This document shows positions 1 through 44,582 of a stretch of 50,823 nt of DNA, in pieces (the first letter of the stretch is position 1; the number at the start of each line of letters is the position of its first letter). The notes beneath the pieces were generated by a model. It searched no databases, had not been told where the DNA came from, and was given only the letters and a program-made list of their open reading frames with translations. Made by a program: the position numbers and the translations under genes. Source of the DNA: an uncultured bacterium (GTDB lineage: Bacteria > Patescibacteriota > Saccharimonadia > Saccharimonadales > 2-12-FULL-41-12); contig CAWIAU010000001.1 in the NCBI GenBank assembly GCA_963834265.1, positions 535,523 through 586,345 on the forward strand. Direction: 5' to 3'.

Positions 1-1245
1 ATACCAAATATCTGGGAGGAAAAAGGCTATAACCTGATGCAGGCGATGACTGTTATCCTCAGCAGCGAAGATCTGGCACGTGATCTGAAGCTAAATTACC
101 GGCCGCTTTTTGAAGTTATATTACCTATGACCGAGCGGCCGGAGCAACTTATGCGCATACATACGTTGTTTCAGAAATTAGCACGCTTCAAGAACACAGA
201 CTTTACCAAAAAAGAGCCGGACAATAATGATCATCTGGAACTGATACCGTTAGTTGAAAGCGTAGAAAGTCAGCTGGACGTTAAGACCCTGCTGACCAGC
301 TATACAGAGCTTCACGAGCAGCATTTTGGTTACAGGCCGGAGTACATAAGAGTGTTTCTGGCCTGCTCTGATTCTTCCCTGTCCTCAGGTTTACTGGCTG
401 GTCTGCTGGGCAATAAGTTGGCCTTGACCCGCCTCTATGAATTTTCAAAACAGTCAGGTATTCCGATATTTCCGATTGCTGGTGCCGGAAGTACCCGCTT
501 TCGGGGTGGACTTGCGCCAAACACAATAAATCGTTTCATTCAGGAATTTCCCGGAGTCCGGACAGTTACACTGCAGTCGGCTTTTCGATATGACTATCCG
601 TTGGAAGAAGTCAAAGCCGCTACAGTCCGGTTGGAAAAAGAGCTGCCAAAAATTCAGCCACGTGTAATCTCTGCCAAACATCAGAAGCAAATGATCAGTA
701 TAGGGCAGCTGTCTGCAGAATTTTACCGGCAGACGTTGAGCAGCTTGCTAACAGATATGCAGTCAATCTTTGACGCGGTGCCGAAACGCCGTGATCGCCG
801 TCAGCATATAGGCCTGCTGGCTTACTCGCGCTCGCTGGGAGAACAGAGCATGCCGCGTGCTATCACCTTCACCGCCGGATTTTATTCTATCGGTGTCCCG
901 CCGGAATTTATTGGCATGGGGCGTACCCTGAATAGCCTTAAATCAACAGAAATGGAATTGTTACGGAGAGAATACCCGAATCTGGTCCATGACTTTGAAG
1001 CAGTCGGACGCTATCTCAATACGGATAACCTGACCAAACTGGCGAAACAGAATAACTCGTGGAAAGATGTACAGGAAGATATTAAATTCACCGAAGAAGT
1101 ACTGGGATTGAAATTTGGTCCACAAACCGATGAGGAAAAAACTCACAAAGATTTAACGTCTAAAATTTTATCCTCCAAAAATAAACCTGCCGAACTTTCT
1201 GACCTCATCCTGGAAGCCGCTACTCTTCGTAAAAACATGGGATAA
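1..1245 (+). CDS. ppcA: Archaeal-type phosphoenolpyruvate carboxylase (5'-partial; frame open from base 1)
   Basis: Frame 1 is open from position 1 (IPNIWEEKGYNL MQAM...). Motifs FEVILPMT, IPLVE, FRGGL, TVTLQSAFRYD and PRAITFTAGFYSIGVPPEFIG are typical of PpcA. Confidence 0.9.
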   Translation: MPNIWEEKGYNLMQAMTVILSSEDLARDLKLNYRPLFEVILPMTERPEQLMRIHTLFQKLARFKNTDFTKKEPDNNDHLELIPLVESVESQLDVKTLLTSYTELHEQHFGYRPEYIRVFLACSDSSLSSGLLAGLLGNKLALTRLYEFSKQSGIPIFPIAGAGSTRFRGGLAPNTINRFIQEFPGVRTVTLQSAFRYDYPLEEVKAATVRLEKELPKIQPRVISAKHQKQMISIGQLSAEFYRQTLSSLLTDMQSIFDAVPKRRDRRQHIGLLAYSRSLGEQSMPRAITFTAGFYSIGVPPEFIGMGRTLNSLKSTEMELLRREYPNLVHDFEAVGRYLNTDNLTKLAKQNNSWKDVQEDIKFTEEVLGLKFGPQTDEEKTHKDLTSKILSSKNKPAELSDLILEAATLRKNMG

Positions 1246-1320
1246 GAATTTAATAAAATATTCTGTACCCATTTAATATAATGGTGTATAATTAAGAAAA
1301 TTTAAGGAGCCCGGATCACT

Positions 1321-2352
1321 ATGCCCGACACGGGAAAAGAAGTTGAGATTGCTGACTGGATCCAAAATGAGGCGGAAAGCGTAGAACTAGCTCAGGAGAT
1401 TGCTGATTATACGAGACGCGAGGCAACAATTGTGCGTGCTGTCGGAGGTATTGCAGCCATAGATCCTGAAGCAGCCCATGCGGTAGCTAGGGATATGATT
1501 TGGTTTGATCCAACACAAGTTTCCATAGGAATTAACGCTTTGGTAGAAGTAGGAAAAGTTACCGGCAACACAGCATATATTGATGAGGCACTGACTGCCG
1601 CCAAAGCCAGAACAAGGCCGGATCAGTTAGGTGTAAAACTGGGAACTATTGTCCGACGCGGATTTGAAGTCGATCCCGATTGCATGACAGAGGTGGCTCG
1701 CGCTATAGAAATACCAAATGCCAGGGCTAAAGTTATGGCGCATATAGCTGGCCGACAAGGTAATCCGGACCTGTTAAAAGAAGTAAATGATTTTGCGGAA
1801 GCAGAAGATCTGCGTAGTATGGGCGTAAATAATGAAATAAGCGAAGCGGGATTAGATTTAGACTACCGGATAAGTATCCGGGCACATATGCGCACCCAAC
1901 CCCGCGATATATCTGAAAGCAGACTTCTGGAAAGAAAGCACGAATATGTTTTGGAGTGCGCAGATCATGCTTTCAGAACCGAAAACCAAGCCCGTTTATT
2001 AGAAATAAGTCATGATGTCGCCGAAGCGTTTTTGTGGGCTTCACAACAAGTACGGTCCCCGGAAGCATGGCGATATGGTCACTATCGCAACGAAGCTATA
2101 GAAGAAGCACTAACATTGGCTACAGAATTTGAGATTATGGCGCATAAGGACAGCGTTACGTTATTAACTGCTGCCAGGAATCTTATTGACACCCGGATAG
2201 AACAAATAAATGAACGGAATCTGGAACTTGAGCCATGGCCTGATGATATTAATGCCTTGATAGTTGGGCTTGCCGATGAAGATATAATCAGAAAACTTGG
2301 CTTGGTAGAAGATGGTGATATTTCTGATTTAGTTGAACCAGAAAAAAGCTAG
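1321..2352 (+). CDS. Hypothetical acidic alpha-helical protein
   Basis: 343-aa ORF with upstream TATAAT and AAGGAG. No family recognised. Confidence 0.7.
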   Translation: MPDTGKEVEIADWIQNEAESVELAQEIADYTRREATIVRAVGGIAAIDPEAAHAVARDMIWFDPTQVSIGINALVEVGKVTGNTAYIDEALTAAKARTRPDQLGVKLGTIVRRGFEVDPDCMTEVARAIEIPNARAKVMAHIAGRQGNPDLLKEVNDFAEAEDLRSMGVNNEISEAGLDLDYRISIRAHMRTQPRDISESRLLERKHEYVLECADHAFRTENQARLLEISHDVAEAFLWASQQVRSPEAWRYGHYRNEAIEEALTLATEFEIMAHKDSVTLLTAARNLIDTRIEQINERNLELEPWPDDINALIVGLADEDIIRKLGLVEDGDISDLVEPEKS

Positions 2353-2486
2353 TTGCGACTTCGAAATTCGAAATTGCTAATTGATCAGAGAAATATGTAG
2401 CTGACGAGACTAAGTCTCACTAATTATTCCTTAAAATAGTAAAAAGTCATATATAATTAAATTTTGAACTAAGGAGTTACCCGGCA

Positions 2487-3713
2487 GTGGCGAAAATCAA
2501 TGAAAATTACCGGAAATTGCAGGCCGGATATCTGTTCCCCGAAATTGCCCGCCGTACCCGCGAATTCCATGAACGCAATCCTGGCGTGGAGCTGGTCAAA
2601 CTTGGTATCGGCGATACTACAGAACCACTAACTCCATCAGTTATCAATGCCTTGCGTAAAGCAGTTGATGATCTGGCTGATGCCAAAACCTACACCGGCT
2701 ATGGTGTGGAACAAGGCAATTCTGAGCTCAGACAGGCACTGGCTGATCATTACAAAAGCCTGGGCGTATATATCGGGTCTGATGAAGTATTTGTCAGTGA
2801 CGGTGCCAAGCCGGATTCTGCGAATATTCAGTCAATTTTCTCTGACGATTCAATCATAGCTGTCCAGGATCCCGTTTACCCTGTCTATGTCGATAGTGCG
2901 GTAATTGGCGGCAAAACTTCCGGATACAGCAACGGGCGGTACAAAGGCATCGTATACATGCCCTGCACCGAAGAAAACGAGTTTTTCCCTGATGTCCCGG
3001 ACGAAAAAGTTGATATTATCTATATCTGTAGCCCCAATAATCCGACTGGCGCTGTTGCGACTCATGATCAGCTCAAAAAATTCGTTGATTATTCACATAA
3101 GTACGATGCGGTAATAATCTTTGATGCGGCCTATGCTGCCTTTATTTCCGACAGCAACCTGCCCCGCTCTATATATGAGATCGAGGGTGCAGAGGAACAT
3201 GCAATCGAGATTAATAGTTTCTCCAAAATAGCCGGGTTCACGGGTGTGCGGTTGGGCTGGACAATTGTCCCGCATAAGCTGCGTGTTGAGGGGACACAGC
3301 CGGGTGAAGTCCAGGCTCTCTGGAACCGGCGCCAATCTACGATGTTCAATGGCGCTTCCAATATTGTCCAAAATGGTGGTTTAGCCGTATTATCTCCCGA
3401 AGGTCAGAAAGAATCGCAAAAATTAGTAGACTATTATATGGAAAACGCCGCTATTATACGCCGCGGTCTCAATGATATCGGTATTGTCACCTTCGGCGGC
3501 GTCAATGCGCCGTATATTTGGGCCAAAACGCCTGATGGTCTGGACAGTTGGGAATTTTTTGACAAGCTGATGAATCAGGCTCATGTAGTCGGTACCCCGG
3601 GTGCCGGCTTCGGCGCCGGTGGTGAGGGATACTTCCGTCTCAGTGCATTCGGTGAGCGCGCAAATGTCAAAAAAGCTGTCAAAAATATTAAAGAAAACCT
3701 CCACATCTCATGA
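2487..3713 (+). CDS. dapL: LL-diaminopimelate aminotransferase
   Basis: GYLFPEI, LGIGDTTEP, SDGAK, DPVYPVYVD, CSPNNPTG, SFSKIAGFTGVRLG (PLP lysine), GEGYFRLSAF. GTG start after AAGGAG. Confidence 0.95.
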   Translation: MAKINENYRKLQAGYLFPEIARRTREFHERNPGVELVKLGIGDTTEPLTPSVINALRKAVDDLADAKTYTGYGVEQGNSELRQALADHYKSLGVYIGSDEVFVSDGAKPDSANIQSIFSDDSIIAVQDPVYPVYVDSAVIGGKTSGYSNGRYKGIVYMPCTEENEFFPDVPDEKVDIIYICSPNNPTGAVATHDQLKKFVDYSHKYDAVIIFDAAYAAFISDSNLPRSIYEIEGAEEHAIEINSFSKIAGFTGVRLGWTIVPHKLRVEGTQPGEVQALWNRRQSTMFNGASNIVQNGGLAVLSPEGQKESQKLVDYYMENAAIIRRGLNDIGIVTFGGVNAPYIWAKTPDGLDSWEFFDKLMNQAHVVGTPGAGFGAGGEGYFRLSAFGERANVKKAVKNIKENLHIS

Positions 3714-4972
3714 AAACACTCCCTTTCGATAAAAAAATGCTTGAAAAAATAATTCAAAAATATCCCACACCATTCCATATATATGACGAGCAAGGTATCA
3801 GGGCTACTTCCCGGGCTTTAAATGAAGCTTACGACTGGTCTCCTGACTACATGAATTATTTTGCTGTCAAGGCAACGCCCAATCCATATATTATGGAGAT
3901 TGTTAAAAGTGAGGGGATGGGGGCAGATGCGAGTTCACTACCAGAGCTTATCCTGGCCGAAAAAACGGGTCTGCGCGGCGAACAAATCATGTTTACCTCC
4001 AACAACACTGCTCCGGAAGAATATAAAAAAGCATATGAGCTTGGAGCAATCATAAATCTGGATGATATTAACCAGATTGAAGTTCTGATTCGGGCCCTGG
4101 ATGGCAAATTTCCTGAGTTGATATGCTTTCGCTACAACCCCGGTCCGGATCTCGTAACAGACAAAAGCAATGTAATTGGTAATCCGAGTGACGCCAAATT
4201 CGGCGTGACAACTGCCCAGCTGCCTGAAGCTTACAAGCTTGCGCGGGCTAAAGGCGCGAAACGATTCGGGCTTCATACCATGGTGGTCTCGAACGAATGC
4301 AGCGTAGCGGCTCACGCGCAGACTGCGGAAATTTTATTCAACATGGCTGTACGACTTTCGGAAGAGCTGAATATTAAATTTGATTTCATTAATCTGGGCG
4401 GTGGCTTGGGTGTGGCTTATAAGCCTGATGACGAAATTCTGAATTTGAAGACACTGGAAGCTGAAGTTAAGAGTGTCTATGACAGAATCGTCAAGGGAAG
4501 CGGCCTTGATCCTATCCGGATTGTCACGGAAAACGGCCGCTACGTATTAGCGCCGAACGGTTATCTGATAACTACAGTTCGTAGCATCAAAGATACGTAT
4601 CATCGCTATGTGGGTGTCGATGCTACCATGGCTGATCTGATGCGTCCCGGTATGTACGACTCATACCATCATATTACTGTTATTGATAAAGAAAATACGG
4701 CTCCTCTTCCTCAGCGTGTAACCGGTAGTCTGTGCGAAAATAACGATGTATTTACCGGCTCAAAAGATCGCATGCTGCCAGAGCTTGAGCCCAATGATGT
4801 CCTTGTAATTCACGATACGGGAGCTCATGGTCAGTCCATGGGATTCAATTACAACGGTAAACTCCGCCACGCAGAATTATTACTAAAAGAAGACGATACA
4901 ATCCAACAAATCCGCCGTTCCGAAAATCTCAAAGACTACTTCGCAACCCTCGATTATCCGGGTTTGGTCTAA
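3710..4972 (+). CDS. lysA: Diaminopimelate decarboxylase
   Basis: TPFHIYDE, FAVKA (PLP lysine), AKFG, INLGGG, ENGR, GSLCENND, GAHG. ATGA overlap with dapL. Confidence 0.95.
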   Translation: MKTLPFDKKMLEKIIQKYPTPFHIYDEQGIRATSRALNEAYDWSPDYMNYFAVKATPNPYIMEIVKSEGMGADASSLPELILAEKTGLRGEQIMFTSNNTAPEEYKKAYELGAIINLDDINQIEVLIRALDGKFPELICFRYNPGPDLVTDKSNVIGNPSDAKFGVTTAQLPEAYKLARAKGAKRFGLHTMVVSNECSVAAHAQTAEILFNMAVRLSEELNIKFDFINLGGGLGVAYKPDDEILNLKTLEAEVKSVYDRIVKGSGLDPIRIVTENGRYVLAPNGYLITTVRSIKDTYHRYVGVDATMADLMRPGMYDSYHHITVIDKENTAPLPQRVTGSLCENNDVFTGSKDRMLPELEPNDVLVIHDTGAHGQSMGFNYNGKLRHAELLLKEDDTIQQIRRSENLKDYFATLDYPGLV

Positions 4973-5019
4973 GTTCCGGTTTTTGGTATAATTGGTTGTA
5001 ACGATTTTAAGGGATTAAT

Positions 5020-6093
5020 TTGAAAATTTATAATTTTAGTGCTGGTCCGGCTATGTTACCGGAACCGGTGCTCGTGGCTGCGCGGGATGAAATGCTGGAC
5101 TGGCATGGCCATGGCATCGGCGTGATGGAAATGAGCCATCGCAGCACAGAATTTCTGAGCATTGCCGAACAGACAGAAGCTGATTTGCGCGAGCTTATGG
5201 CCATCCCCGATAACTACAAAGTCCTGTTTCTTCAAGGTGGTGCAACCGGTCAGTTTGCGGCATTGCCAATGAATTTATCAAAGTCTGCAGATACAGCAGA
5301 TTATATTATTACAGGTCATTGGGGACAGAAAGCCGCAGCAGAAGCCAAGAAATATCTGAATGTTAATATAGCGGCCAGCACTGAGCCGTTCACAAGCATA
5401 CCGGATCAGGATGACTGGAAGTTATCCAAAAATGCTGCCTATATCCATATCACTCAGAATGAAACCGTTAACGGAGTAACTTTCGAAGCTACGCCGGATA
5501 CAGGTACCAAACCATTAGTAGCCGATATCAGCTCCATGATCCTGAGTGAACCGATGGATGTCAGCAAATATAGTGTCCTGTACGCCGGAGCCCAAAAAAA
5601 TATCGGACCGGCCGGTTTGACGATTGTAATTGTACGCGAAGACTTACTTGGACAAGCCCGTACTGATACACCGCAAATATGGAACTGGTCCGAAAAATCT
5701 GTTGCCGGATCGATGGTTAATACTCCCCCCACCTACAGCTGGTATATGGCTGGTCTGGTCTGCAAATGGCTCAAAGAGCTGGGCGGTGTAGAGGCAATTG
5801 CCAGGGTCAATCAGAGAAAGGCCACGAAACTATATAAAGCGATTGATGAGTCATCGTTCTATGCAAATCCAATCAAACCTGCATACAGATCCAGGATGAA
5901 TGTAATTTTTACGCTTCCCAACCCCGAGCTGGATAAATTGTTTGCTGAAGAAGCATATGCCCACGGGCTAAGGAATTTGGAGGGACATCGGAATCTCGGT
6001 GGTATGCGCGCCAGTATCTATAATGCCATGCCGGAAGAAGGCGTAGATGTGCTGATAAAATTCATGAAAGAATTTGAGGCAAAACATGGGTAA
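5020..6093 (+). CDS. serC: Phosphoserine aminotransferase
   Basis: NFSAGPAMLP, EMSHRS, LFLQGGA, AGAQKNIGPAG, NTPP, GHR..GGMRASIYNA. Confidence 0.95.
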   Translation: MKIYNFSAGPAMLPEPVLVAARDEMLDWHGHGIGVMEMSHRSTEFLSIAEQTEADLRELMAIPDNYKVLFLQGGATGQFAALPMNLSKSADTADYIITGHWGQKAAAEAKKYLNVNIAASTEPFTSIPDQDDWKLSKNAAYIHITQNETVNGVTFEATPDTGTKPLVADISSMILSEPMDVSKYSVLYAGAQKNIGPAGLTIVIVREDLLGQARTDTPQIWNWSEKSVAGSMVNTPPTYSWYMAGLVCKWLKELGGVEAIARVNQRKATKLYKAIDESSFYANPIKPAYRSRMNVIFTLPNPELDKLFAEEAYAHGLRNLEGHRNLGGMRASIYNAMPEEGVDVLIKFMKEFEAKHG

Positions 6094-7258
6094 AGATAAA
6101 AAATTTCAAATCAAAACATACAACCAGATAGCCCGCATCGGTCTGAACAGATTTAGCTCTGATTATAAAATATCTGATCATACGGATAAACCAGATGCAA
6201 TTATGCTGCGGTCACACGACCTTCATAAAGAATCAATTACAGAGAGCGTGCTGGCAATAGGTCGTGCCGGAGCCGGCGTTAATAATATTCCTGTTGAAGA
6301 ATTAAGCAAACGGGGCATCGTCATTTTTAATGCCCCGGGCGCTAACGCAAATGCCGTCAAGGAGCTGGTAATAGCCGGAATGCTGCTGGCCAGCCGGAAT
6401 ATTGCCGATGCAATTGCCTACACTTCCGGGCTGTCATCAGAGAATATGAAAGATAAAGTGGAAGCAGGTAAAAAAAAGTTTGCAGGCAGTGAGCTATCCG
6501 GCAAAACCCTCGGTGTTATCGGACTGGGCGCGATCGGTTATCGTGTGGCAAACAGTGGTATTGACCTTGGCATGCGGGTACTCGGATATGATCCGGCTAT
6601 GACGGTGCAGAATGCCTGGCAGTTGCGTTCGGGAGTCAGGCAGATTGATAAAATTGAAGACCTGCTCAAACAATGTGACTTCGTAACAATTCATGTACCC
6701 CTGCTTGACGTAACGAGAGGAATGCTTAACAAAAAAAGAGTATATGGTATGAAGCCCGGAGCCGTGTTGCTTAATTTCTCACGTGATGAACTGGTAGATG
6801 AAGCGGCGGTAACGGAAAGACTTAGCAAGGGAAAGCTGGCAAAATACGTTACCGATTTTCCAAATAGTGTCACAAATGGCCACAAAGGTGTGGTTGCTCT
6901 GCCCCATCTTGGTGCTTCGACAGAGGAAGCAGAAGATAACTGTGCTGTAATGGTCGCTGATCAGCTGCAGGATTATCTGGAAAACGGCAATGTAAAATAT
7001 TCTGTTAATCTGCCGGAAACTGTGCTGCCAAAGAACGGCGGTCTTCGTTTATGTATGATTCATACCAATGAGCCCGGCGTAATGGCCCAGATAAGTGATA
7101 TCCTGCGTGATGAGCGCATTAATATTGCCGACCTGCTCAACAAAAGCCGCGGCTCCCTCGCCTACACATTAATAGATATAGAAGCCAAAGAAGTATCAAA
7201 AAGTCTGACTGATAAACTTGAACGTATTCCGGAGCTTCTGCGTCTTCGTATTATTTAA
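6086..7258 (+). CDS. serA: D-3-phosphoglycerate dehydrogenase with C-terminal ACT domain
   Basis: RAGAGVNNI, GVIGLGAIG, LNFSR, PHLGAST and an ACT-like tail. ATG at 6086 overlaps the serC stop. Confidence 0.92.
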   Translation: MGKDKKFQIKTYNQIARIGLNRFSSDYKISDHTDKPDAIMLRSHDLHKESITESVLAIGRAGAGVNNIPVEELSKRGIVIFNAPGANANAVKELVIAGMLLASRNIADAIAYTSGLSSENMKDKVEAGKKKFAGSELSGKTLGVIGLGAIGYRVANSGIDLGMRVLGYDPAMTVQNAWQLRSGVRQIDKIEDLLKQCDFVTIHVPLLDVTRGMLNKKRVYGMKPGAVLLNFSRDELVDEAAVTERLSKGKLAKYVTDFPNSVTNGHKGVVALPHLGASTEEAEDNCAVMVADQLQDYLENGNVKYSVNLPETVLPKNGGLRLCMIHTNEPGVMAQISDILRDERINIADLLNKSRGSLAYTLIDIEAKEVSKSLTDKLERIPELLRLRII

Positions 7259-8145
7259 GAATTACTTTGATTATTAAACCAGGAATTGATGTCTGAGTTG
7301 GCCTGGCGTACGACTTCAGGATCAGGCATATCTTTGCTACTCAGAGGCAGACGCAGTTCAGGTGATTTGATGCGGCCCAGGTCGTATAGTAAAGCTTTGG
7401 CGGGAATCGGGTTACTGGCGCAAAAAAGTGCTTTGGTAGATTTCTGCCAGATATCATTATCCATAAAAGTGCCGTTAGTGCACTGCCGCGCAAACTCGTG
7501 CGTGGCTTCCGGCCAGACATTGGCTGCTACCGACACCACGCCTTTTGCTCCGAGTTTGGCAAAAGCCGGCAGCATAGGGTCGTCTCCGCTCATCATGCGA
7601 ACATTCGGGAGGCCTTTTGCGTATTTGCTGAATGATTCTTCTGAGCCGCTGGCTTCTTTGACAGCCCAGAATCTGGGATGATCGGCTAGCATCTGTGCTG
7701 CTTCCAGCTCCAGCTCTTTGGCGGTACGCCCCGGAACGTTATAGAGCATACAGGGCTTATCGGATATATCAAGAAGTTCCCTGAACCAGCCGTACTGGCC
7801 GTGGACTCCGGGCTTGGAATACAAAGGCACAACCATCAGGTAACAGTCGACAACGAGTGTATTCAGATATTCTACCCATTTCTTCTGAAGCTTGAGATTG
7901 ATGCCTCCTATTCCAACCATGATCGGTACTTTCAAATTTAATCCTAAGACAAAGTCCAGGATTTCTCTTTTTTCAGATTCATCGATGGTCAATGCCTCCC
8001 CTGTGCTGCCCAGAATCGTAAGTGCGTTTCCGGCCGCCTCCTGTTTTTTCAGCAGCGCACCAAAACTCTCATAATCTATGCTGCCGTTAGCAAGCATCGG
8101 CGTAACAATAGCTGTCCAGACAAGGTAGGCATCAATATCTTTCAT
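7255..8145 (-). CDS. dapA: 4-hydroxy-tetrahydrodipicolinate synthase
   Basis: TAIVTP, GSTGE, LYNVPGRT, VKEASG, SGDD, SNPIPAK. Confidence 0.93.
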   Translation of the reverse strand: MKDIDAYLVWTAIVTPMLANGSIDYESFGALLKKQEAAGNALTILGSTGEALTIDESEKREILDFVLGLNLKVPIMVGIGGINLKLQKKWVEYLNTLVVDCYLMVVPLYSKPGVHGQYGWFRELLDISDKPCMLYNVPGRTAKELELEAAQMLADHPRFWAVKEASGSEESFSKYAKGLPNVRMMSGDDPMLPAFAKLGAKGVVSVAANVWPEATHEFARQCTNGTFMDNDIWQKSTKALFCASNPIPAKALLYDLGRIKSPELRLPLSSKDMPDPEVVRQANSDINSWFNNQSNS

Positions 8146-8810
8146 ATATTCAGTTCTTTCCCCATTATATCTTGTAAATTGTGGAGGCCGGGGGGGACTA
8201 CGCCGGTGGCTAGTTTTTTGGCGGTCCAGATGGCACCTTCAGCGAAGATGCGGCGGTCTTTGGCCTGGTGTTCAATGCTTATGTCTTCGCCGGGAGTTAC
8301 AAGTGTTATTCGGTGATTACCGGGATTATCTCCGTCGCGGGCGCTCGTAATCTTTACTTCCTGCCCGATCCACCTTACCCAGGACAAGGCAGTGCCGCTA
8401 GGCTGGTCTTTTTTGTGAATATGGTGAGTCTCGTGTAGTTTGTATTCGTAAGTATCGAGTAGTTGCGGTGCTTTGGCCAGCACTTTGATCATGCCATATA
8501 CCAGATTCATCCCGAGGCTGAAGTTGCCCGCAGTTATCCAGGCTGTGCCCCGCTTTTTGAGCCGCGCGTCAATTTCATCCGGCCAGTCAAAGCCGGTACT
8601 GCCATTGGCTACCGGCAATCCGCTTTCTATCAGCATATCAATGTAAGGCACAAATATCGGGCCTGGTAAAAATGCTATCACAACGTCATGACCAGCAAAT
8701 TTTTCCAGCGTTGGCGGGTTAGATTCATCGAATCCTGTTACTTCTCCGCTTTTTAATAACTCAAGGACCTTACCACCCGTTCTGCCTGTGCCCAGAAGTG
8801 CAATTTTCAT
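8142..8810 (-). CDS. dapB: 4-hydroxy-tetrahydrodipicolinate reductase (short type)
   Basis: LLGTGRTG, GSTG, NFSLG, ETHHIHKKDQPSGTA, R.IFAEGA. Confidence 0.92.
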   Translation of the reverse strand: MKIALLGTGRTGGKVLELLKSGEVTGFDESNPPTLEKFAGHDVVIAFLPGPIFVPYIDMLIESGLPVANGSTGFDWPDEIDARLKKRGTAWITAGNFSLGMNLVYGMIKVLAKAPQLLDTYEYKLHETHHIHKKDQPSGTALSWVRWIGQEVKITSARDGDNPGNHRITLVTPGEDISIEHQAKDRRIFAEGAIWTAKKLATGVVPPGLHNLQDIMGKELNI

Positions 8811-8912
8811 CCCGTAAGAGCTCCTATAAATTTAAGTTGATTGTAGACGGTTATAATGTGCTGCATCGGAACCTCCTGTGTAAGGCAGGGATTGTGAGAG
8901 TTCTAACGGGAT

Positions 8913-10283
8913 TCATTTCTTATCACTTCTTTCTATAAAGACTTTATGTAGTTTATTGACCATGTTGAGACCATGCTTATCTGTTATTACAAAACAAAAA
9001 TTGTGGTAACTGGCACCCTGACAGATCATTCTAACAGATATTTTCTCGCCCTCGTCTTCCAGATTAGCAAATATTTCCTGTGCCAGGCCAGGTGCCTTAT
9101 TGACGTTATTGCCTATCAATGAAATTACGCTCAAACCCTTTTCTATACTAACCTCACCGAGTTTTTCCAGCTCCCCGAATAGCTTTTTGTTTATAAGCAT
9201 CTGATTCTCAAGGACTACGGCTACAGATATTTCGCTGGTACTTATCTGATCGACACTAATTTTGAATTTTGCGAACAAATCAAATACCTTTGCAAGGTAA
9301 CCGAATTGATGCGCCATTTCAGGAGTAGCCAGTCTCACTATAAACTGATTTGTTTTGATCGCTACTGCGCGAACTAACGGATGTTCATCCGACTGATCGG
9401 ATATTGTAGTACCACCCTCCTCCGGCGCAAAAGTACTACCAACAAATACCGGAATTTTGGCTCTGCGGGTTGGAGTTATCGTCTTGGGATACAGAACTCT
9501 GGCTCCTGCAGTAGCCAGCTCAGCAGCTTCCTGAAAAGATAAATGATCAATTTTTTTAGCGCCTTTGATAATACGGGGATCAGCCGATGATATGCCACTG
9601 GTATCTGTCCATATCTGTAGCTGTTGGGCATTGATAGCTTCGGCTAACAGTGCGGCACTATAGTCGCTGCCTCCACGGCCCAGCGTGGTAACTTCGTTCG
9701 CCGGCGATGACCCTATAAAACCTTGTGTTACGAGTATGCAACCGGGCCGCAACCGGGGCCTTATTATCTGCTTAGATGCTGCTGATATTTCACCAACAAG
9801 GGGGGTGGCATATCCGAAATGACTATCTGTTTTGATCACTTGCCTTGCATCGATAATTTCTGCTTCGCATTTATGATTTCGCAAGGCGACGACTATCAGC
9901 TCAGAGGATAACTGTTCTCCATACCCCAGGATACGATCAGTAAGCTTCTTCTTATGCATAGCAACCAATTCGGTATTCGTAGCAATAGTACGTAATTCGG
10001 TAAAGATTTCGTTGAGGATTGCCAACAACTCCTTTTTTCCGCCCAGCTCTTCTGCAATTTTAGTGTGATTCGTAATTATTTCGAGAACTATTCTTTCTGC
10101 GTCGAGTTGGTTTTTTGCAAAAACAGCTTTGGCCAGATCAACAAGCGAGTTGGTCGTACTGTGAGTAGCAGAAACTACCACCAAAGAGACTTTATTTTGA
10201 ATAGTAACTTTGGCAGCCTGATTTATAGCCTTCGCGTCTGCCAGTGAAGTCCCGCCGAATTTTGCTACAATTATTTTGCCCAA
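8913..10283 (-). CDS. lysC: Aspartate kinase with ACT domains
   Basis: KFGGTS, VVSA, TQGFIG, TTLGRGGSDYSA, WTD, DPR, ISTSEIS, MICQGAS. Confidence 0.95.
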   Translation of the reverse strand: MGKIIVAKFGGTSLADAKAINQAAKVTIQNKVSLVVVSATHSTTNSLVDLAKAVFAKNQLDAERIVLEIITNHTKIAEELGGKKELLAILNEIFTELRTIATNTELVAMHKKKLTDRILGYGEQLSSELIVVALRNHKCEAEIIDARQVIKTDSHFGYATPLVGEISAASKQIIRPRLRPGCILVTQGFIGSSPANEVTTLGRGGSDYSAALLAEAINAQQLQIWTDTSGISSADPRIIKGAKKIDHLSFQEAAELATAGARVLYPKTITPTRRAKIPVFVGSTFAPEEGGTTISDQSDEHPLVRAVAIKTNQFIVRLATPEMAHQFGYLAKVFDLFAKFKISVDQISTSEISVAVVLENQMLINKKLFGELEKLGEVSIEKGLSVISLIGNNVNKAPGLAQEIFANLEDEGEKISVRMICQGASYHNFCFVITDKHGLNMVNKLHKVFIERSDKK

Positions 10284-10512
10284 AACATATCCTTTCCCGT
10301 GCCTTATGTTTTAATTGTAACAGATGAATAACCCTGAAGAATTACTTTAGGGCTTTATTGTTTTGATAATTTTTGAGATAGAATCTTTCAAAATTTTATA
10401 AACATATCTTTTGATACGGTCAGAAAATTTTGAAAGATTCCAGCCGAAAAGGACGAGATAAGAATCCGGAAAGTAATTTTCCGGGGGTATATACCGATGA
10501 TATGATACGAGT

Positions 10513-11622
10513 ATGAATAAAGTCGGATTTGTCGGATATCGCGGTATGGTTGGCTCCGTATTGATGGAGCGGATGCGGGAGGAGAATGATTTTGCCGGTA
10601 TTGAACCGATGTTTTTTTCTACTTCACAGGCAGGAGCCAATGGTCCTGAGATAAACGAACAAAAAACTACGCTCCTTGATGCGTATGACCAGATTGCTCT
10701 TAGCGGCCTGGATGTGATTGTCAGTTGTCAGGGCAGCGACTACACCAGGCGTGTTCATCCGGAACTGAGAAGCAGTGGCTGGAATGGCTATTGGATTGAC
10801 GCGGCCAGCTACCTTCGTAATGAGGATTCATCAGTCCTGGTACTTGATCCGGTCAATCGCCATGTTATAGAAAGTGCAGTAAATGCCGACAAAAAAGATT
10901 TAATCGGAGCCAATTGTACGACATCTCTGGCAATTATGGGTCTGGCCGGATTATTGAACGCCGGAGAAGTAGAATCAATAAATATTGCGTCATACCAAGC
11001 AGTTAGCGGTGCCGGAGCGAAACATATGACTGAGCTGTTAGAACAAATGCAGTCACTGGGCAATGCAGTCCGGCTCACTACTGATGATCCTGCCAGCACA
11101 ATACTCGATATAGACCGGACAGTAACAACTCACCTGCGGTCGGGTGATTTGCCTGTGACTCATTTCGGTTACCCGATTGCCGGAAATGTGCTGCCGTGGA
11201 TTGATTCCGAAATGGATACCGGCCAATCGCGCGAAGAGTGGAAAGTGCAGGTAGAAGCAAATAAAATTCTGGGATTGAATCCGGGGATTATTGTTGACGG
11301 AACTTGCGTTCGCGTCGGCTCCATGCGCTCCCACTCTCAGGCTGTAATCATGAAGCTCAAACGGGATATACCGTTGTCGGAAATAGAGCAGATTATTACG
11401 AGTGCTCACGAGTGGATAGACTTTGTGCCGAATATTAAAGAAGCAACTCTAAGCAGGCTAACACCTGTTGCGGTTAGTGGTACACTCAAAATCGCCGTGG
11501 GCCGGGTGCGCAAACTAAACAATGGTCCGGAATATCTGAACGCTTTTGTAACCGGTGATCAGTTACTGTGGGGAGCCGCTGAACCACTCCGCCGGGCTCT
11601 GAATATCGTTCTTTCCCCATAA
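10513..11622 (+). CDS. asd: Aspartate-semialdehyde dehydrogenase (gammaproteobacterial-type sequence)
   Basis: GYRGMVGSVLM, GYWIDAAS, GANCT, YQAVSGAGA, SREEWK, GDQLLWGAAEPLRR. Confidence 0.95.
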   Translation: MNKVGFVGYRGMVGSVLMERMREENDFAGIEPMFFSTSQAGANGPEINEQKTTLLDAYDQIALSGLDVIVSCQGSDYTRRVHPELRSSGWNGYWIDAASYLRNEDSSVLVLDPVNRHVIESAVNADKKDLIGANCTTSLAIMGLAGLLNAGEVESINIASYQAVSGAGAKHMTELLEQMQSLGNAVRLTTDDPASTILDIDRTVTTHLRSGDLPVTHFGYPIAGNVLPWIDSEMDTGQSREEWKVQVEANKILGLNPGIIVDGTCVRVGSMRSHSQAVIMKLKRDIPLSEIEQIITSAHEWIDFVPNIKEATLSRLTPVAVSGTLKIAVGRVRKLNNGPEYLNAFVTGDQLLWGAAEPLRRALNIVLSP

Positions 11623-11686
11623 AGCTATTGCTTGCAATAGAGTCTATGACCATATATTATTCACAGAATAAAATATAGGAATTTAT

Positions 11687-12727
11687 ATGTCAGCGCCGGA
11701 ACAGGGTCTATTTTTATCAGTTGGATACGGAAATGTAGGACAAGCTGTTCCTGAGAGATGTGAGGATTTGGGCTTAGCTCATGCTTCTTATGTAATACGA
11801 TCAGGGGGCACATATTTACGTAATAATGATCAAGAACCTAGCCTTTTAGTAAGTGATAATCCTGATTTCTGGAACGATGAAAGAGTAGTAGATGGCGTAA
11901 ACGTGGCTTTCCTTGCTACACCATCCTCTGGTGACGGTACTCATGCGCTTGATATTATTGAGGATCTTACGGATCAGGGGATATTTGTAGTAACAGCCGA
12001 AAAAGCCGCACTTGCTAATCACTACGCAAATCTTGAACCATGCCTGAATAATATAGGGATAAGTGCAACAGTTGGCGGTGGAACCCGCATGCTGCCTTGG
12101 CTCTCAGAAAGAATTAACCCGAGAACAAGACAAGTTCACGCTGTTTTGAATGGCACACTTAACTTTATTATGGATGGCATTGGAAGTGGCAGAACTGCCG
12201 GTACTACTATCGACGAAGCTGTAATTTTGGGATATGCCGAACCCGGAGCAACAGACCATCTGGAGGTTTTAAACGGAGAATTAGTCGGTGATATACCAAA
12301 AAAAACAACAATAGTTTGGAACACTGTTTTGCGGAAAGCATTCGCAGAAGATGAAGTGTTGCATCATGCACAGATTGAACAGCCATCTTTGAATCAGGAT
12401 AGTTTGAACCAGCTCATTGCCGAAGCAAGCGCAAGAAGATACATTGTATCATTTGTCCATGAAAGTGAAGAAATTCCTGAAAGGGATATAATAGCCGGCT
12501 TCAGGAAAGAGGTTGATGGCGGTATGCTGATAATAGGCGGATTCCGAAGAATTACAGACAATCCCTTGTTTAAAGCATTAAGATTGCCCGGCCCGTCAAA
12601 TGGTGCAGTGATTACTGCAGGGCCAAACGAATCGGACGGTGTATATAAGATTGAGGGACCCGGCGCAGGTCCCGGGCCTACAGCAGCAGCAATGGTTCAG
12701 GACGCGAGGCATCTGCTAAGAGTTTAA
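11687..12727 (+). CDS. hom: Homoserine dehydrogenase (divergent, no ACT domain)
   Basis: GYGNVG, VVTAEK, ATVGGG, LNGTLNFI, GYAEP, GPGAG..PTAAA. Confidence 0.85.
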   Translation: MSAPEQGLFLSVGYGNVGQAVPERCEDLGLAHASYVIRSGGTYLRNNDQEPSLLVSDNPDFWNDERVVDGVNVAFLATPSSGDGTHALDIIEDLTDQGIFVVTAEKAALANHYANLEPCLNNIGISATVGGGTRMLPWLSERINPRTRQVHAVLNGTLNFIMDGIGSGRTAGTTIDEAVILGYAEPGATDHLEVLNGELVGDIPKKTTIVWNTVLRKAFAEDEVLHHAQIEQPSLNQDSLNQLIAEASARRYIVSFVHESEEIPERDIIAGFRKEVDGGMLIIGGFRRITDNPLFKALRLPGPSNGAVITAGPNESDGVYKIEGPGAGPGPTAAAMVQDARHLLRV

Positions 12728-12755
12728 AGTTTTTAGAAGTAAATAAGATTCTGAT

Positions 12756-13043
12756 TTATTCTGTTTTAATTGGTTTCCAGAGACCGATAAACTGGCCCGA
12801 AAATACCGTTTGCTTTTGAGAATCAATGCACGGTCCGACAATTGCATCTTCTTTCGAACCGAATGGATCGTTATGTCGATCCGCACGTAACATTTGCTCA
12901 ATGGTTTCATTATTCCACATCGTAATTCCGCCTATTTGTTGATGGGTAACGGATAATTGTGCTGCGCATCGGGCAGCAACCTCAGAATCTATAGTATGTG
13001 GAATTACACCAGAACCGTATATTTTACTGATATCGAGAGACAT
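12756..13043 (-). CDS. Hypothetical protein
   Basis: 95-aa ORF filling a gap, with TATAAT 7 nt before the ATG. Confidence 0.5.
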   Translation of the reverse strand: MSLDISKIYGSGVIPHTIDSEVAARCAAQLSVTHQQIGGITMWNNETIEQMLRADRHNDPFGSKEDAIVGPCIDSQKQTVFSGQFIGLWKPIKTE

Positions 13044-13081
13044 TCTTGCAATTATATCATAAACTGGGAATTAACAATACT

Positions 13082-14107
13082 TTAGTACGGACGGGATTTT
13101 TCGAAAGCATCGGACCATTCACCTTTTGAGGCTAAAGAATTAGCTTGTGCACGGTGCAGGAATGCAGCCCGGGCTTTATTTTTATCGCCGGCTGCCCACA
13201 ATCTGAGCACGGGGTTTTGGATAGCCCGGCTGTAGCTAAAGGATAATGGCCATGGCATACCACCGATTTTATTCATAGCGTCCAGATGAGCGGTTGCCTC
13301 TTCTTCTCCTTGCCCTCCGGAAAGAAAAACAATGCCGGCCAGGTTTGCCGGTACATGTTCTTTAAGAACTTTTACGGTCTGCAAAGCGACAGTTTCTGTA
13401 TTTGCCCTATCAGAAGCATTTTTGCCGGAGATAACCATGCTGGCTTTAAGAATTGTGCCTTCAGGCAGCACTCCCTGGTCTTCCAAAGAATGAAACAAAG
13501 CTTTCAGCGTTCTGGTGGTAGCTTCATAACTGGTTTCGATAGAATGATTACCATCCAACAGTACTTCCGGCTCAACTACCGGCACAATGCCCGCTTCCTG
13601 GGCCAACGCCGCATAACGAGCTAAAGCGTGGCTATTGGCATGAAGACAAGCGTCTGACGGATTGCCGGACTCGTCGATGGTAATAACTGCCCGCCATTTG
13701 GCGAAGCCGGTGCCCATGGTTGCATATTCGGCAAAGCGTTCACGAAGACCATCCAGTCCCTCAGTCACCTTTTCGCCGGGATGCAAGGCCAGATCTTTGG
13801 CACCCATATCTACTTTGATCCCCGGAATAATCCCTTTATGCTTCAAAACCTCTGTAAATGGCGTGCCATTGTCGTCATTCTGGCGTATGGTTTCATCGAA
13901 TAAGATAATCCCACTCAGAAATTTTTCGTTGCCCTCAGCTGCGATAAATAGTTGCCGCCATAAGCGTCTGTTTTCTTCCGTATTTTCCAGATTTACAGAA
14001 TCGAAACGTTTGGCTACCGTTGGTGCGCTTTCGTCGGCAGCGAGTAATCCTTTGCCGGAGGCCATCATTGATTTTGCTGTTGTTTTGAGCTGATCTTCAA
14101 ATTGCAC
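13082..14107 (-). CDS. fda: Class I fructose-bisphosphate aldolase
   Basis: GKGLLAADES, PGIKVD, FAKWR, VVEPE, FLSGGQ, SFSYSRA. Confidence 0.93.
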   Translation of the reverse strand: MQFEDQLKTTAKSMMASGKGLLAADESAPTVAKRFDSVNLENTEENRRLWRQLFIAAEGNEKFLSGIILFDETIRQNDDNGTPFTEVLKHKGIIPGIKVDMGAKDLALHPGEKVTEGLDGLRERFAEYATMGTGFAKWRAVITIDESGNPSDACLHANSHALARYAALAQEAGIVPVVEPEVLLDGNHSIETSYEATTRTLKALFHSLEDQGVLPEGTILKASMVISGKNASDRANTETVALQTVKVLKEHVPANLAGIVFLSGGQGEEEATAHLDAMNKIGGMPWPLSFSYSRAIQNPVLRLWAAGDKNKARAAFLHRAQANSLASKGEWSDAFEKSRPY

Positions 14108-15079
14108 TTATATCTCCTTTTTTAAATCTACTATTTCTTTATTGCCGATGATTACAACAGTGCGTTCATGAAGCTCAACCGGCATAACATCCATCACCGA
14201 TATATGTCCATTCGAGGCTGCGCCTCCTGCCTGCTCAGCCAGAAATGCCAGCGGCTTCGCTTCATAGTTCAGACGAAGCTTGGGTTTATACTTTTTTACT
14301 CCGGAAGTGTCTATTGCCGGAAAGAATAGTATCCCGCCTTTGATCAGATTCCGATGAAAATCAGCTACAAATGAGCCTATCCAACGCAATTTTGACGTCT
14401 TCTGCCTCATGATAGCGAGATATGCCTGATCACTTTCGGAAATACTATATGCGTATGACTCGTTAAAGCTGTAATACGGGCACTCCGCCGGAATTGTAAC
14501 CTGCTCATTACTAAGAATGAATGAGCCAATATCGCTGTCCAGAGTAAATTCATGAACCCCATCGCCCCAGGTAAATACGAGAATCGTGCTGGAACCATAT
14601 AAAACGTAACCGGCCAGAACCTGATCGCGCCCTTTTTGCAGAAATTGCTTCGGATCTCCGGGAGCTATGTAATCAAGTTTGTTATGAACTGAGAAAATAG
14701 TTCCGACAGAGACATTTACATCAATATTACTGCTACCGTCCAACGGGTCGAATGCGATAATATATTTTGCATCCGGCTGTTCCAGATCCACCACATTTTC
14801 TTCCTCTTCACTTGCGAGAGCCGCGAACATACCTGTACTTTGGAGGTAACTTTTGCATAAATCATTGGTCAGCACATCCAGTTTGGCCTGTTTTTCAGCA
14901 TGAATATTGGAAGTATTAGTCATGCCGATGCTTTCAGTCAGTCCGGTACGATTAGTATGAGAGCTTATCAGCTTGCCAATAGTCGCAATATTGGACATAA
15001 CAATCGTCAGTTCCAGACGTTCAGGATGGTCAGTCAGCTGCTCCAGAAGATATTGCTGCAATGTGGTCGGAGCGATCAT
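14108..15079 (-). CDS. fbp: Class I fructose-1,6-bisphosphatase
   Basis: KLDV, ASEE, FDPLDGSSNIDVNVSVGTIFS, RWIGSFVADFHR, KLRLNYEA.P.AFLAEQAGG. Confidence 0.93.
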   Translation of the reverse strand: MIAPTTLQQYLLEQLTDHPERLELTIVMSNIATIGKLISSHTNRTGLTESIGMTNTSNIHAEKQAKLDVLTNDLCKSYLQSTGMFAALASEEEENVVDLEQPDAKYIIAFDPLDGSSNIDVNVSVGTIFSVHNKLDYIAPGDPKQFLQKGRDQVLAGYVLYGSSTILVFTWGDGVHEFTLDSDIGSFILSNEQVTIPAECPYYSFNESYAYSISESDQAYLAIMRQKTSKLRWIGSFVADFHRNLIKGGILFFPAIDTSGVKKYKPKLRLNYEAKPLAFLAEQAGGAASNGHISVMDVMPVELHERTVVIIGNKEIVDLKKEI

Positions 15080-15179: not shown

Positions 15180-16043
15180 TTAAATTTCGATTTCTGTCTG
15201 ACCGAAAGTCGCGGCGTAGCCCCCGACCTTTACTTTGCCGGCAATATCCACATACAATGTGCTGTCTTTACCAATATCAAAACCCTGCCTGATAACGAAC
15301 TGCTTCCGGCCATCCTTGTATATGTATTTGTCTGCATAACAACCCAGCGGCCCGGCAGCGACACCTGTAGCGGCATCCTGACTGATACCGACCAACGGGT
15401 TAAAGAAACGTGCGCAGAAATCCACCCCGTTCTCACTTGTATCCCGGGCAAACAAATACATTCCTTTTACATGATTAACCTCGCTATACTGGATGATCGC
15501 TTTAAGATCGGGTTTGGCAGCAACCAGCCTGTCTGGTGAAACAACCGGGACCATCAGTTTTGCCACGGCCGTAGAGACGGTTTGAACAGGCCACTGTGCA
15601 ATATCATTCTCTTCGAGTCCCAGAAGTGTAGCTATTTTCTGGCGTCCCGGCTCAGTGTTGCCGAAAAACGGATCATTTTGTGTCATCATAATTTTTCCGT
15701 CAGGATAGCACTCAACTACAAACACTCCGGCTTTTGTCTCTTGTGTAAACTGAGTAACTCCGGTTGCGTTAAGGGTAAGAGCTCCCTTTTCTAACAGACT
15801 GTGAAATGTTGCCAGTGTAGCATGTCCACAAAGCTCAACTTCACCTTTCGAAGCAAAGAACCGTATGCGGAAATCAGCTTTGTCTGAAGACTGCACGAAC
15901 GCAGACTCAGAATAATCCAAAGCCTGAGCAACTGATAACATCTGATCGTCACTCAGATTATCGGCATTTAGTACCACACCGGCCGGATTACCCTGAGCCG
16001 GATCATTGGTAAATGCTCTGACCAGCCTGACATCTGCTTTCAT
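15180..16043 (-). CDS. PhzF-family isomerase/epimerase
   Basis: AFT..P.QGNPAGV, SESAF, IRFF...EVELCGHAT, RFFNP..G..DAATG. Confidence 0.9.
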   Translation of the reverse strand: MKADVRLVRAFTNDPAQGNPAGVVLNADNLSDDQMLSVAQALDYSESAFVQSSDKADFRIRFFASKGEVELCGHATLATFHSLLEKGALTLNATGVTQFTQETKAGVFVVECYPDGKIMMTQNDPFFGNTEPGRQKIATLLGLEENDIAQWPVQTVSTAVAKLMVPVVSPDRLVAAKPDLKAIIQYSEVNHVKGMYLFARDTSENGVDFCARFFNPLVGISQDAATGVAAGPLGCYADKYIYKDGRKQFVIRQGFDIGKDSTLYVDIAGKVKVGGYAATFGQTEIEI

Positions 16044-28997: not shown

Positions 28998-29008
28998 CTG
29001 TATATCCT

Positions 29009-33018: not shown

Positions 33019-33032
33019 GCTATTTGTTTTCC

Positions 33033-33223
33033 TTACTGGCCATTTGATTCCATAAACTTTAGTATGTCTTCTTTTTGTATCGATACAGCTTCCTGGCACC
33101 AATACGTTTCGCCTTTAATGTGCCGTCTTTATCCCAGTTCCTGAGGGTATTTTCATGGACTTTAAGAAGCTCAGAAACCTCTTTAAGCGTTAGATATTCC
33201 GGTAAGTCGTTCTTTTGTATCAT
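33033..33223 (-). CDS. Excisionase/MerR-type HTH DNA-binding protein (not in ORF track)
   Basis: My translation: MIQKNDLPEYLTLKEVSELLKVHENTLRNWDKDGTLKAKRIGARKLYRYKK. One extra A in the homopolymer restores ...EDILKFMESNGQ*. Confidence 0.8.
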
Positions 33224-33271
33224 CTACCAATATCTTATAATAAATACCAATCATATGAAAGTAGATAAGGC

Positions 33272-34156: not shown

Positions 34157-34216
34157 AGAAGTGGTCCAACTAGCACTTAAAGAAATGCGTGAAGAGTTAC
34201 GAAAAAACAACGAAAA

Positions 34217-44557: not shown

Positions 44558-44582
44558 CAATATATTATACCACAGAAGTCAA

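Follow-up and report, generated by a model that had tools for sequence, protein, structure and literature searches.

How can a bacterium make lysine through diaminopimelate (DAP) when no DAP epimerase is found in its genome? The textbook DAP routes to lysine all pass through meso-DAP. The question is raised by a stretch of 50,823 nucleotides (C1:535523-586345, here called the window) of G000, a genome of 1,078,429 bases in three contigs assigned to the Saccharimonadales. At the start of the window, genes for the biosynthesis of aspartate-family amino acids, including those of the DapL route to lysine, lie clustered. An earlier reading of the letters, referred to below as the original prediction, had seen in them a mosaic biosynthetic island that lessens host dependence. 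In our judgement it is rather likely that this is an old mosaic aspartate-family cluster of the Saccharimonadales, in which a remodelled LysA is predicted to decarboxylate LL-DAP directly, with no epimerase involved.

In the proposed route LysC, Asd, DapA, DapB, and DapL would take aspartate to LL-DAP, going by what is known of these families, and the window LysA would then remove one carboxyl group of LL-DAP, at an L-centre, to give L-lysine. LL-DAP is symmetric and loss of either carboxyl group gives L-lysine, so that an enzyme acting on the L-centre needs no meso-DAP. The evidence tips slightly in favour of a broader proposal, namely that LysA of this type (motifs HTMxxSN and GAHG) is a widespread LL-DAP decarboxylase providing an epimerase-free route to lysine in Saccharimonadales, other members of the candidate phyla radiation (CPR), DPANN-type archaea, Methanosarcinaceae, and probably streptococci. 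One saccharimonad lineage would have built the route into a mosaic cluster likely supplying its own wall lysine, and many other saccharimonads would retain the enzyme by itself as a means of harvesting DAP from the host.

No report of a lysine cluster in Saccharimonadia or CPR, nor of an LL-DAP decarboxylase, came up in a literature search of incomplete coverage, most subscription journals lying outside it. New in the window are the saccharimonad cluster, the contrast with G006 within the same family, and the archaeal and order-wide counts given below. Among 42 soil CPR genomes the completeness of the lysine and methionine pathways averaged 0.04-0.10, according to the available part of the study (PMC13707452). 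The G000 lineage is far above this norm in biosynthesis, with lysine, most of methionine, serine/glycine, glutamate dehydrogenase, a nearly full purine pathway, and riboflavin.

The lysine genes and the missing epimerase

The genes of the window were scored with NCBIfam and Pfam profile scans; kinship labels (same family, order) were taken from the genome-collection search. The features that bear on the route to lysine are the following.

2487..3713, + strand: dapL, LL-diaminopimelate aminotransferase (TIGR03542, 572 bits, cut-off 364.7)
3710..4972, + strand: lysA of a distinct subfamily (HTMVVSN and GAHG motifs), candidate LL-DAP decarboxylase (TIGR01048, 284.8 bits)
7255..8145, - strand: dapA, dihydrodipicolinate synthase (TIGR00674, 246 bits; homologues)
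8142..8810, - strand: dapB, short (222 aa) dihydrodipicolinate reductase (PF05173, DapB_C, 3.5e-24)
8913..10283, - strand: lysC, aspartokinase (PRK09084, lysine-sensitive aspartokinase III model, 497 bits)
10513..11622, + strand: asd, gamma-type aspartate-semialdehyde dehydrogenase (TIGR01745, 522 bits; homologues)
15180..16043, - strand: PhzF-family isomerase, DapF-like fold (TIGR00654, 191 bits)

LysC, Asd, DapA, DapB, and DapL are thus all present. DapB scores 94 bits with TIGR00036, below the cut-off of 122; it is backed by its Pfam domain and by synteny and is 71% identical to its orthologue in G012. Its shortness had been recognized correctly. LysA also stays below the cut-off of its model (297.9 bits), and its gene overlaps dapL by 4 nt. 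Of the route from aspartate to lysine by way of DapL that had been read from the stretch, the steps to LL-DAP were found and the DapF step was not. That dapF is lacking in a systematic way had gone unnoticed in the original prediction.

DapF was not found in any of the five genomes searched (G000, G005, G012, G013, and G018), even at an E-value of 1. A hidden Markov model (HMM) built from seven DapF sequences and run without filters against 23,935 six-frame segments of G000 gave a best E-value of 0.76. No Ddh over the cut-off was present in any of 31 genomes, and the Alr family, which includes DapF2, was not found in G000, the single genome searched for it. In the accessible part of PMC9026213, a table of prototrophic variants includes DapF, DapF2, or Ddh in every one of them. 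G006, of the same family as G000, has a dapL-dapF-lysA arrangement with the other type of LysA, 23% identical to that of the window. A decayed dapF with many stops was seen at G216:C1:665252-665780, in a saccharimonad with a LysA of the non-window type.

Three stand-ins were considered and set aside. The PhzF family of the neighbouring gene occurs in only 7 of 33 genomes and in none of six of the same family, an Asp/Glu racemase is present in only one of five near-closed archaeal genomes, and a Ddh bypass is absent from the 31 genomes mentioned and from the archaea with LysA of the window type. The gap could also be closed by an ordinary meso-DAP decarboxylase together with an unrecognised or moonlighting epimerase, be it MurI, a class IV aminotransferase, the PhzF neighbour, or a member of an unknown family. 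We regard this as fairly unlikely. G000 does have MurI, two Aminotran_4 proteins, and the PhzF-family gene beside fbp, and the fold of the window LysA is that of a DAP decarboxylase (DAPDC). Growth of dapF mutants of E. coli has been put down to another racemase, and staphylococci use DapF2 in place of DapF (PMC13759103, available part). The scattered occurrence of PhzF and of the Asp/Glu racemase and the missing Alr family speak against such an enzyme, as does gene context: no lysA neighbour is conserved across five archaeal loci, and three CPR loci carry a contiguous lysC-dapB-dapA-asd-dapL-lysA operon, with no ORF in between, in genomes without DapF. A hidden epimerase also leaves unexplained why, in archaea and saccharimonads, the loss of DapF tracks the type of LysA.

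The MurE of G000 carries DETY where meso-DAP ligases carry DNPR, and its best match in the Protein Data Bank (PDB) is a lysine ligase. The DNPR motif binds meso-DAP (PMC3829189, in the part available). A FemAB protein is present as well. The cell wall of G000 is probably of the lysine type, and the cell, with a MurE devoid of the DNPR motif, probably has no other need for meso-DAP.

Structure and residues of the LysA subfamily

An AlphaFold2 model of the window LysA (pLDDT 93.9) had its best structural matches in DAPDCs, with template modelling (TM) scores up to 0.88 at 29% identity. None of the 33 PDB matches was a solved structure of the subfamily itself. The sequence was aligned to that of the DAPDC of T. 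maritima, for which the roles of the residues are described in the part of PMC8277567 available; there, DAPDC is described as acting on the D-centre only. Kept in the window LysA are Lys46 (Schiff base), Ser182, Glu246, Arg249, Arg285, Cys314, and Glu315 (T. maritima numbering). With the distal site intact, Arg249 and Arg285 included, the far end of the substrate would still be bound as an L-amino acid group. Changed are His179, which stacks on pyridoxal phosphate (PLP) and has become Met191, and Tyr343, which binds the phosphate and has become His373; the lid, which recognises the reacting D-carboxylate, has been replaced in sequence (roles from PMC8277567, same part). Met191 and His373 are invariant in 80 of 80 sequences of the subfamily, and the His and Tyr are kept in eight canonical archaeal LysAs. 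The changes thus cluster where a switch in stereo-preference would act, without proving one. A quick tree was made from 48 rows chosen by hand; in it, LysA proteins of the window type form one clade (SH-aLRT 100) on a stem of 2.39.

The same residues admit a bifunctional LysA that would first epimerise LL-DAP to meso-DAP on PLP and then decarboxylate the D-centre, an explanation that we hold to be distinctly improbable. The fold family of DAPDCs is that of alanine racemase (PMC8277567), and DapF2 is a PLP epimerase of the alanine-racemase family (PMC9026213), in both cases according to the parts of these papers available. Two new invariant residues at the cofactor would suit such an activity, which predicts the same co-occurrence pattern as direct decarboxylation. 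No racemase-type second base was identified, and walled bacteria with LysA of the window type mostly keep DapF (22 of 24 Bacillota), which fits an enzyme that releases no meso-DAP.

Co-occurrence of LysA type with DapF and Ddh

LysA proteins of the subfamily of the window LysA are called window-type here, as distinct from canonical LysA. The clearest split was obtained in archaea. The 101 genomes in the phylum of a Methanosarcina record had one LysA match each, 10 at 54-58% and 91 at 28-34% identity. DapF was present in none of the 10 window-type genomes versus 88 of the 91 canonical ones; counting DapF or Ddh, the figures are 0 of 10 and 89 of 91, as one of the three canonical exceptions has Ddh. 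DapA was found in all five near-closed window-type genomes tested for it. Of 58 genomes in the order of G000 itself, four had DapF above the cut-off, each of them with another LysA type; none of the 28 tested genomes of the window type did. Ten saccharimonads combine DapA with window-type LysA (in two, G014 and G241, the DapA is of another type), and neither DapF nor Ddh was found in any of them. Among genomes without DapF, Ddh was present in 8 of 12 canonical ones and in none of the window-type ones tested, including two Bacillota. The 24 genomes without a DapF match in a sample of LysA loci include all CPR and archaeal, Chloroflexota, and Planctomycetaceae records in it.

Several observations weigh against direct decarboxylation of LL-DAP. 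The fold of the window LysA is nearest to that of D-specific enzymes, ahead of the L-specific lysine and ornithine decarboxylases. L-specific ornithine decarboxylases retain the stacking His as well, so that its loss is not in itself predictive of L-specificity. In the sample of LysA loci (50 of 80 loci, chosen to lower redundancy) DapF exceeded the cut-off in 25 of 50 genomes. The ten window-type archaea probably form a single clade, as the five included in the tree group together, and thus represent one event. Bacillota, in which 24 of 161 genomes have window-type LysA, showed no split: DapF was present in 22 of these 24 versus 37 of the 46 canonical genomes tested out of 130 (44 of 46 with Ddh included). 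If Bacillota keep DapF for the sake of their meso-DAP walls, that result is neutral, yet it lends no support. The window-type motifs are identical in genomes with and without DapF, and no separating motif was seen. The assembly of G000 is 95.8% complete and contains split genes, which makes the absence of dapF less firm, and family searches can miss divergent members, as happened with ThrC.

A further such point is that DapA is lacking in 22 of the 27 saccharimonads with window-type LysA that were sampled; in these the protein probably serves salvage, and the substrate taken from the host may be meso-DAP. In G000, too, the pathway might be broken, the upper genes making LL-DAP for another use and LysA merely salvaging meso-DAP from the host wall. 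The lack of enolase in G000 leaves a gap in other steps of the cluster, and the subfamily has been recruited into a small plasmid biosynthetic cluster, both of which agree with a broken pathway. That reading is nevertheless very unlikely: dapL and lysA overlap by the 4 nt noted above, the pair is kept in G005, G012, G013, G014, G018, and G197, and near-closed genomes of archaea, which have no peptidoglycan, have DapA and window-type LysA as the sole LysA match.

The lysA-only saccharimonads (L177-L202) suggest salvage of host DAP, and the isomer taken could track the wall type of the host. The plasmid cluster (L205:7851-15660) holds a window-type homologue (43%) with a 2OG-Fe(II) oxygenase, a creatininase-family protein, and a MATE transporter. 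No named streptococcal or lactococcal LysA was found in plasmid and phage searches.

On balance, direct decarboxylation of LL-DAP remains the explanation that we favour, and the window holds a real and uncommon biosynthetic cluster of a saccharimonad with a variant of the DapL pathway, whose predicted epimerase bypass can be tested and is probably of general occurrence. If true, calls of auxotrophy change for many metagenome-assembled genomes, and a natural enzyme pair becomes available for studying the choice of stereocentre by PLP decarboxylases.

Gene content of the cluster

The remaining features of the cluster and its surroundings are listed here.

1..1245, + strand: 3' part of ppcA, archaeal-type phosphoenolpyruvate (PEP) carboxylase (TIGR02751, 364 bits)
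1321..2352, + strand: orphan acidic ORF of 343 aa between ppcA and dapL (no Pfam or NCBIfam match; best Atlas score 0.89, to a cluster without a name)
5020..6093, + strand: serC, phosphoserine aminotransferase (PRK05355, 538 bits; TIGR01364, 508 bits)
6074..7258, + strand: serA, phosphoglycerate dehydrogenase with ACT domain (Pfam 2-Hacid_dh and ACT; phosphoglycerate dehydrogenase models below cut-offs)
11687..12727, + strand: hom, divergent homoserine dehydrogenase without ACT domain (PF00742, 5.7e-11; PDB 3ing, 6.2e-11)
13082..14107, - strand: fba, class I fructose-bisphosphate aldolase (NF033379, 464 bits)
14108..15079, - strand: fbp, class I fructose-1,6-bisphosphatase (NCBIfam, 355 bits, cut-off 368; Pfam FBPase, 9.8e-57)
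22740..23789, + strand: homocysteine S-methyltransferase resembling betaine-homocysteine methyltransferase (BHMT) (PF02574, S-methyl_trans, 1.3e-46; PDB 1lt7, BHMT, 2.7e-47, the best match)

All twelve genes that the original prediction had named within 15 kb were recovered. LysA, SerA, DapB, Hom, and Fbp fall below NCBIfam cut-offs and have the matching Pfam domains. That twelve linked-pathway genes should lie within 15 kb, in an order repeated in other genomes, is far beyond chance. The BHMT-like protein, expected at 22.7 kb and found there, has the three Zn-binding Cys residues in its S-methyl_trans domain. The archaeal type of PpcA was borne out by its TIGR02751 match. The window edge truncates its gene; the complete ppcA begins at C1:535256, 266 nt upstream of the window, and encodes 503 aa. 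Upstream of it and overlapping it by 1 nt lies a gene for an AspC-like aminotransferase (C1:534096-535256), an enzyme that had been missing from the list of the original prediction.

Hom had been called very divergent and acidic. It is divergent, and its acidity is mild (13% D+E versus 7.5% K+R). The protein has an Atlas score of 0.97 to homoserine dehydrogenase clusters and is 62-64% identical to its orthologues in G012 and G018. The ORF at 1321-2352 has 19% acidic residues and a low GC content at third codon positions (GC3), and a second orphan ORF within the cluster lies at 12756-13043. A gene for a class II aldolase is present on contig C2 of G000. In a search for Rfam RNAs, riboswitches included, a tRNA was the sole match near the cluster.

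Farther along, positions 28389-37276 form a low-GC island (36-43%) that ends at a tRNA-Asn. It holds a type III restriction-modification system broken up into several ORFs, together with a resolvase and a replication-initiator-like protein. Positions 42284-45149 encode a RelA/SpoT-like protein and a cob(I)alamin adenosyltransferase; a class II ribonucleotide reductase is found at L044:13538.

Age and mosaic origin of the cluster

Gene order in relatives supports the view that the cluster is old within the family and is not a recent acquisition. In G005 dapL, lysA, serC, serA, dapA, lysC, and asd occupy the same chromosomal position as in G000, flanked by purP/purA/guaA on one side and by homologues of the window genes at 38661, 39780, 41775, 42284, and 44583 (38.7-45.1 kb) on the other. 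As G005 shares the neighbours on either side, both flanks of the cluster are reproduced in an independent assembly. The order in G012 is hom-asd-lysC-dapB-dapA-(trehalose-phosphate synthase)-serA-serC-lysA-dapL. G197, of another family, has dapL-lysA, dapA-dapB-lysC, and asd-hom in the order of G000 at 37-60% identity. The cluster genes of G000 are 48-75% identical to those of G005, which resembles the values for nearby housekeeping genes (70-75%). PpcA is present in three of five genomes (G005, G012, and G018); in G005 it is encoded elsewhere, as an aspC-ppcA pair. A gene for a trehalose-6-phosphate synthase/phosphatase lies between serA and dapA in G005, G012 (L019/L022), and G018 (L215) and on C2 in G000.

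Measured against 627 genes, the codon-use z-scores of the cluster genes range from -0.5 to +2.0 and their GC3 z-scores stay within about 2 (hom, -2.02), unlike the restriction/recombinase island at 28.4-36.2 kb (codon-use z -1.2 to -3.1). No integrase or tRNA was found within 1-16 kb of the window in a search that did not take in border repeats. DapL exceeded the cut-off in 6 of 24 genomes of the same family and in none of 16 genomes of other families. Across the order, 57 of 251 genomes (at least 90% complete) have a LysA-like match, of the window type in 28. LysA and DapA over the cut-off occur together in only 5 of the 250 other genomes of the order, so that the full pathway is rare there, with a patchy distribution concentrated in part of the family. 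That patchiness alone would fit an island in the sense of a recent acquisition; the ordinary codon use and the synteny shared with G005 do not.

In all likelihood the cluster is not chimeric. Several of its genes are of non-CPR types, which might point to a stretch that came from a non-CPR genome as a chimera or contaminant. Such an origin is barely credible: the 16S gene lies on the same contig, contamination is 0.13%, codon use is average, both flanks are syntenic with G005, and the nearest named homologues are from Saccharimonadales.

The nearest relatives of the individual genes support assembly of the cluster from modules. Asd had been assigned to a gammaproteobacterial type, in agreement with its TIGR01745 score, and beyond the saccharimonad clade its nearest named relatives are from Microbulbifer, Alcanivoracaceae, Vreelandella, and Desulfuromonas (58-62%). 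Of the ten DapA clusters at 53-58% that were looked up, one carried an organism name, Halobacteriovorax. DapL (63-65%) and LysA (56-58%) are close to those of Daviesbacteria, Levybacteria, and one archaeal operon; the DapA and DapB of those operons are only 26-34% identical to the window's, and their Asd, where present, is of another type. By this comparison the saccharimonad cluster has joined a dapL-lysA pair to a different upper module. The nearest relatives of Hom are Minisyncoccota clusters. Recruitment from different donors, as first proposed, thus finds support in nearest relatives and model subtypes, LysA being the only gene for which a tree was made.

The host and its remaining dependence

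Assignment of the host to the Saccharimonadales (Patescibacteria) is supported by several lines of evidence and agrees with the Saccharimonadia-like host first proposed. The only 16S gene of G000, located on the contig of the cluster (C1), has no mismatches to three TM7 probe targets and two to the general bacterial target. The genome, at 1.08 Mb, is also reduced. The named top matches of LysA, DapA, and Asd are from Saccharimonadales or Patescibacteria, with one DapA labelled Parcubacteria. The nearest named LysA loci in the species-genome collection, L081 and L082, are from Ca. Saccharimonadales (75% and 71%); in the quick LysA tree they group with G000 and four rows of the same family (SH-aLRT 86), nested in a clade (SH-aLRT 100) that holds one further Saccharibacteria row. 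Pfam scans also revealed genes for a cyo oxidase and type IV pili, both typical of Saccharimonadales. In G000 elongation factor G (EF-G) is split over four ORFs and RpoC and DnaG over two each (L060:8508-10562, L060:11966-15824, and L036:15813-17593), probably as a result of indel errors in the assembly.

The rest of the metabolism was surveyed by a Pfam scan of about 734 of the 1,072 ORFs of G000 (126 of them rescanned), which skipped short, giant, ribosomal, and probably secreted proteins. Found outside the cluster were glutamate dehydrogenase, GlyA, MetK, AhcY, pyruvate kinase, the oxidative pentose phosphate pathway, the cyo oxidase, and riboflavin genes, as well as ArgG, ArgH-like, and ArgB-like proteins (a reading of Pfam matches and sequence) and a LeuA-like protein. 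MetA is encoded beside a 698-aa Cys/Met PLP fusion and ThrC, an arrangement conserved in G012. The gene for the fusion (G000:C1:432191-436794; L050:12280-16883), whose 370-aa N-terminal part has no family, converges on metA and adjoins thrC. Hom would feed methionine synthesis through MetA, the MetB-like fusion, and the BHMT-like enzyme, and threonine synthesis through ThrC. Of the two threonine enzymes of interest ThrC was found and ThrB was not: the iPGM/HomK family and the GHMP kinases, the ThrB families, gave no match in any of five genomes. A clear SerB was likewise not found in G000, which has haloacid dehalogenase (HAD) and inositol monophosphatase (IMPase) candidates only. According to GapMind, as cited in the available part of PMC13759103, missing thrB and serB genes are not to be taken as auxotrophy.

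The pathways for Ilv, His, Trp, Aro, Pro, and Cys were not seen in the Pfam scans. No enolase was found in G000; G012 has one. This leaves a gap in the supply of PEP for PpcA, and host dependence is trimmed without being lifted. Because one family search missed ThrC, which was recovered by a later Pfam rescan, these absences carry some doubt. The lysine made would serve protein synthesis and probably a lysine-type wall; PEP and most other amino acids would still come from the host or the medium. Reduced host dependence, as originally suggested, is supported only in part: it would hold for lysine, most of methionine, and serine/glycine among others, and enolase, iPGM, ThrB, and most amino acid pathways were not found.

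The purine genes of G000 comprise purF, D, N, L, M, E, C, and B, two PurP, PurO, purA, and guaA. In this nearly full pathway PurP is of the archaeal type and PurO is encoded beside a PurH-like protein (L002:8030-10167, L077:15629-16375, L062:18585-19631, and L055); no IMP dehydrogenase was seen in the scans. A class I lysyl-tRNA synthetase (PF01921), possibly split, at L048:11104-12279 is unusual next to a lysine-pathway question. Contig C3 carries a second F-type ATPase alpha/beta-like and gamma-like set (L078:8960-12554), apart from the atp operon at the end of the window. A heliorhodopsin and polyprenyl synthase, phytoene synthase, and desaturase-like genes were also seen (L048:12999-13895; L037:574-2620; L030:1906-3393).

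Comparison with known systems

G000 shares with the DapL pathway LysC, Asd, DapA, DapB, DapL, and a LysA homologue, all clustered, and differs from it in that DapF, DapF2 (the Alr family, searched in G000), and Ddh were not found. Canonical LysA (EC 4.1.1.20; PDB 2yxx, 1tuf, 1ko0, and 2qgh) and the window LysA are alike in fold (TM 0.84-0.88), with a fold-type III barrel plus beta domain, the Schiff-base Lys, the catalytic Cys-Glu, and the two distal Arg residues. They differ in sequence (about 29-31% identity, below the TIGR01048 cut-off), in the exchanges His179Met and Tyr343His, in the lid, and in the separate, long-stemmed clade of the window type.

A missing dapF is likewise answered by DapF2 (Alr2-like) in Staphylococcus, Gemella, and Peptostreptococcus (PMC9026213 and PMC13759103, available parts). 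DapF2 is an epimerase encoded by a gene of its own and belongs to the alanine-racemase family, which was not found in G000. The tabtoxin cluster of Pseudomonas syringae encodes TabA, a LysA-like protein in a DAP-derived pathway, and the genes listed for it in the accessible part of PMC3927611 do not include dapF, as in G000; TabA did not complement an E. coli lysA mutant (same part of PMC3927611). The operons of Daviesbacteria, Levybacteria, and DPANN-type archaea (L085, L100, L151, L083, L094, and L135) resemble the cluster most in LysA (53-58%) and, in five of the six, DapL (53-65%), with no DapF in the genome. They differ from it in DapA and DapB, which are 27-34% identical where present, and in an Asd of another type.

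S. pneumoniae has no dapF and still makes its lysine; a screen across its genome turned up no epimerase, according to the parts available of bioRxiv 10.1101/2024.09.24.614635 (see also PMC7725326). If the prediction made here is true, a LysA that uses LL-DAP would close this gap.

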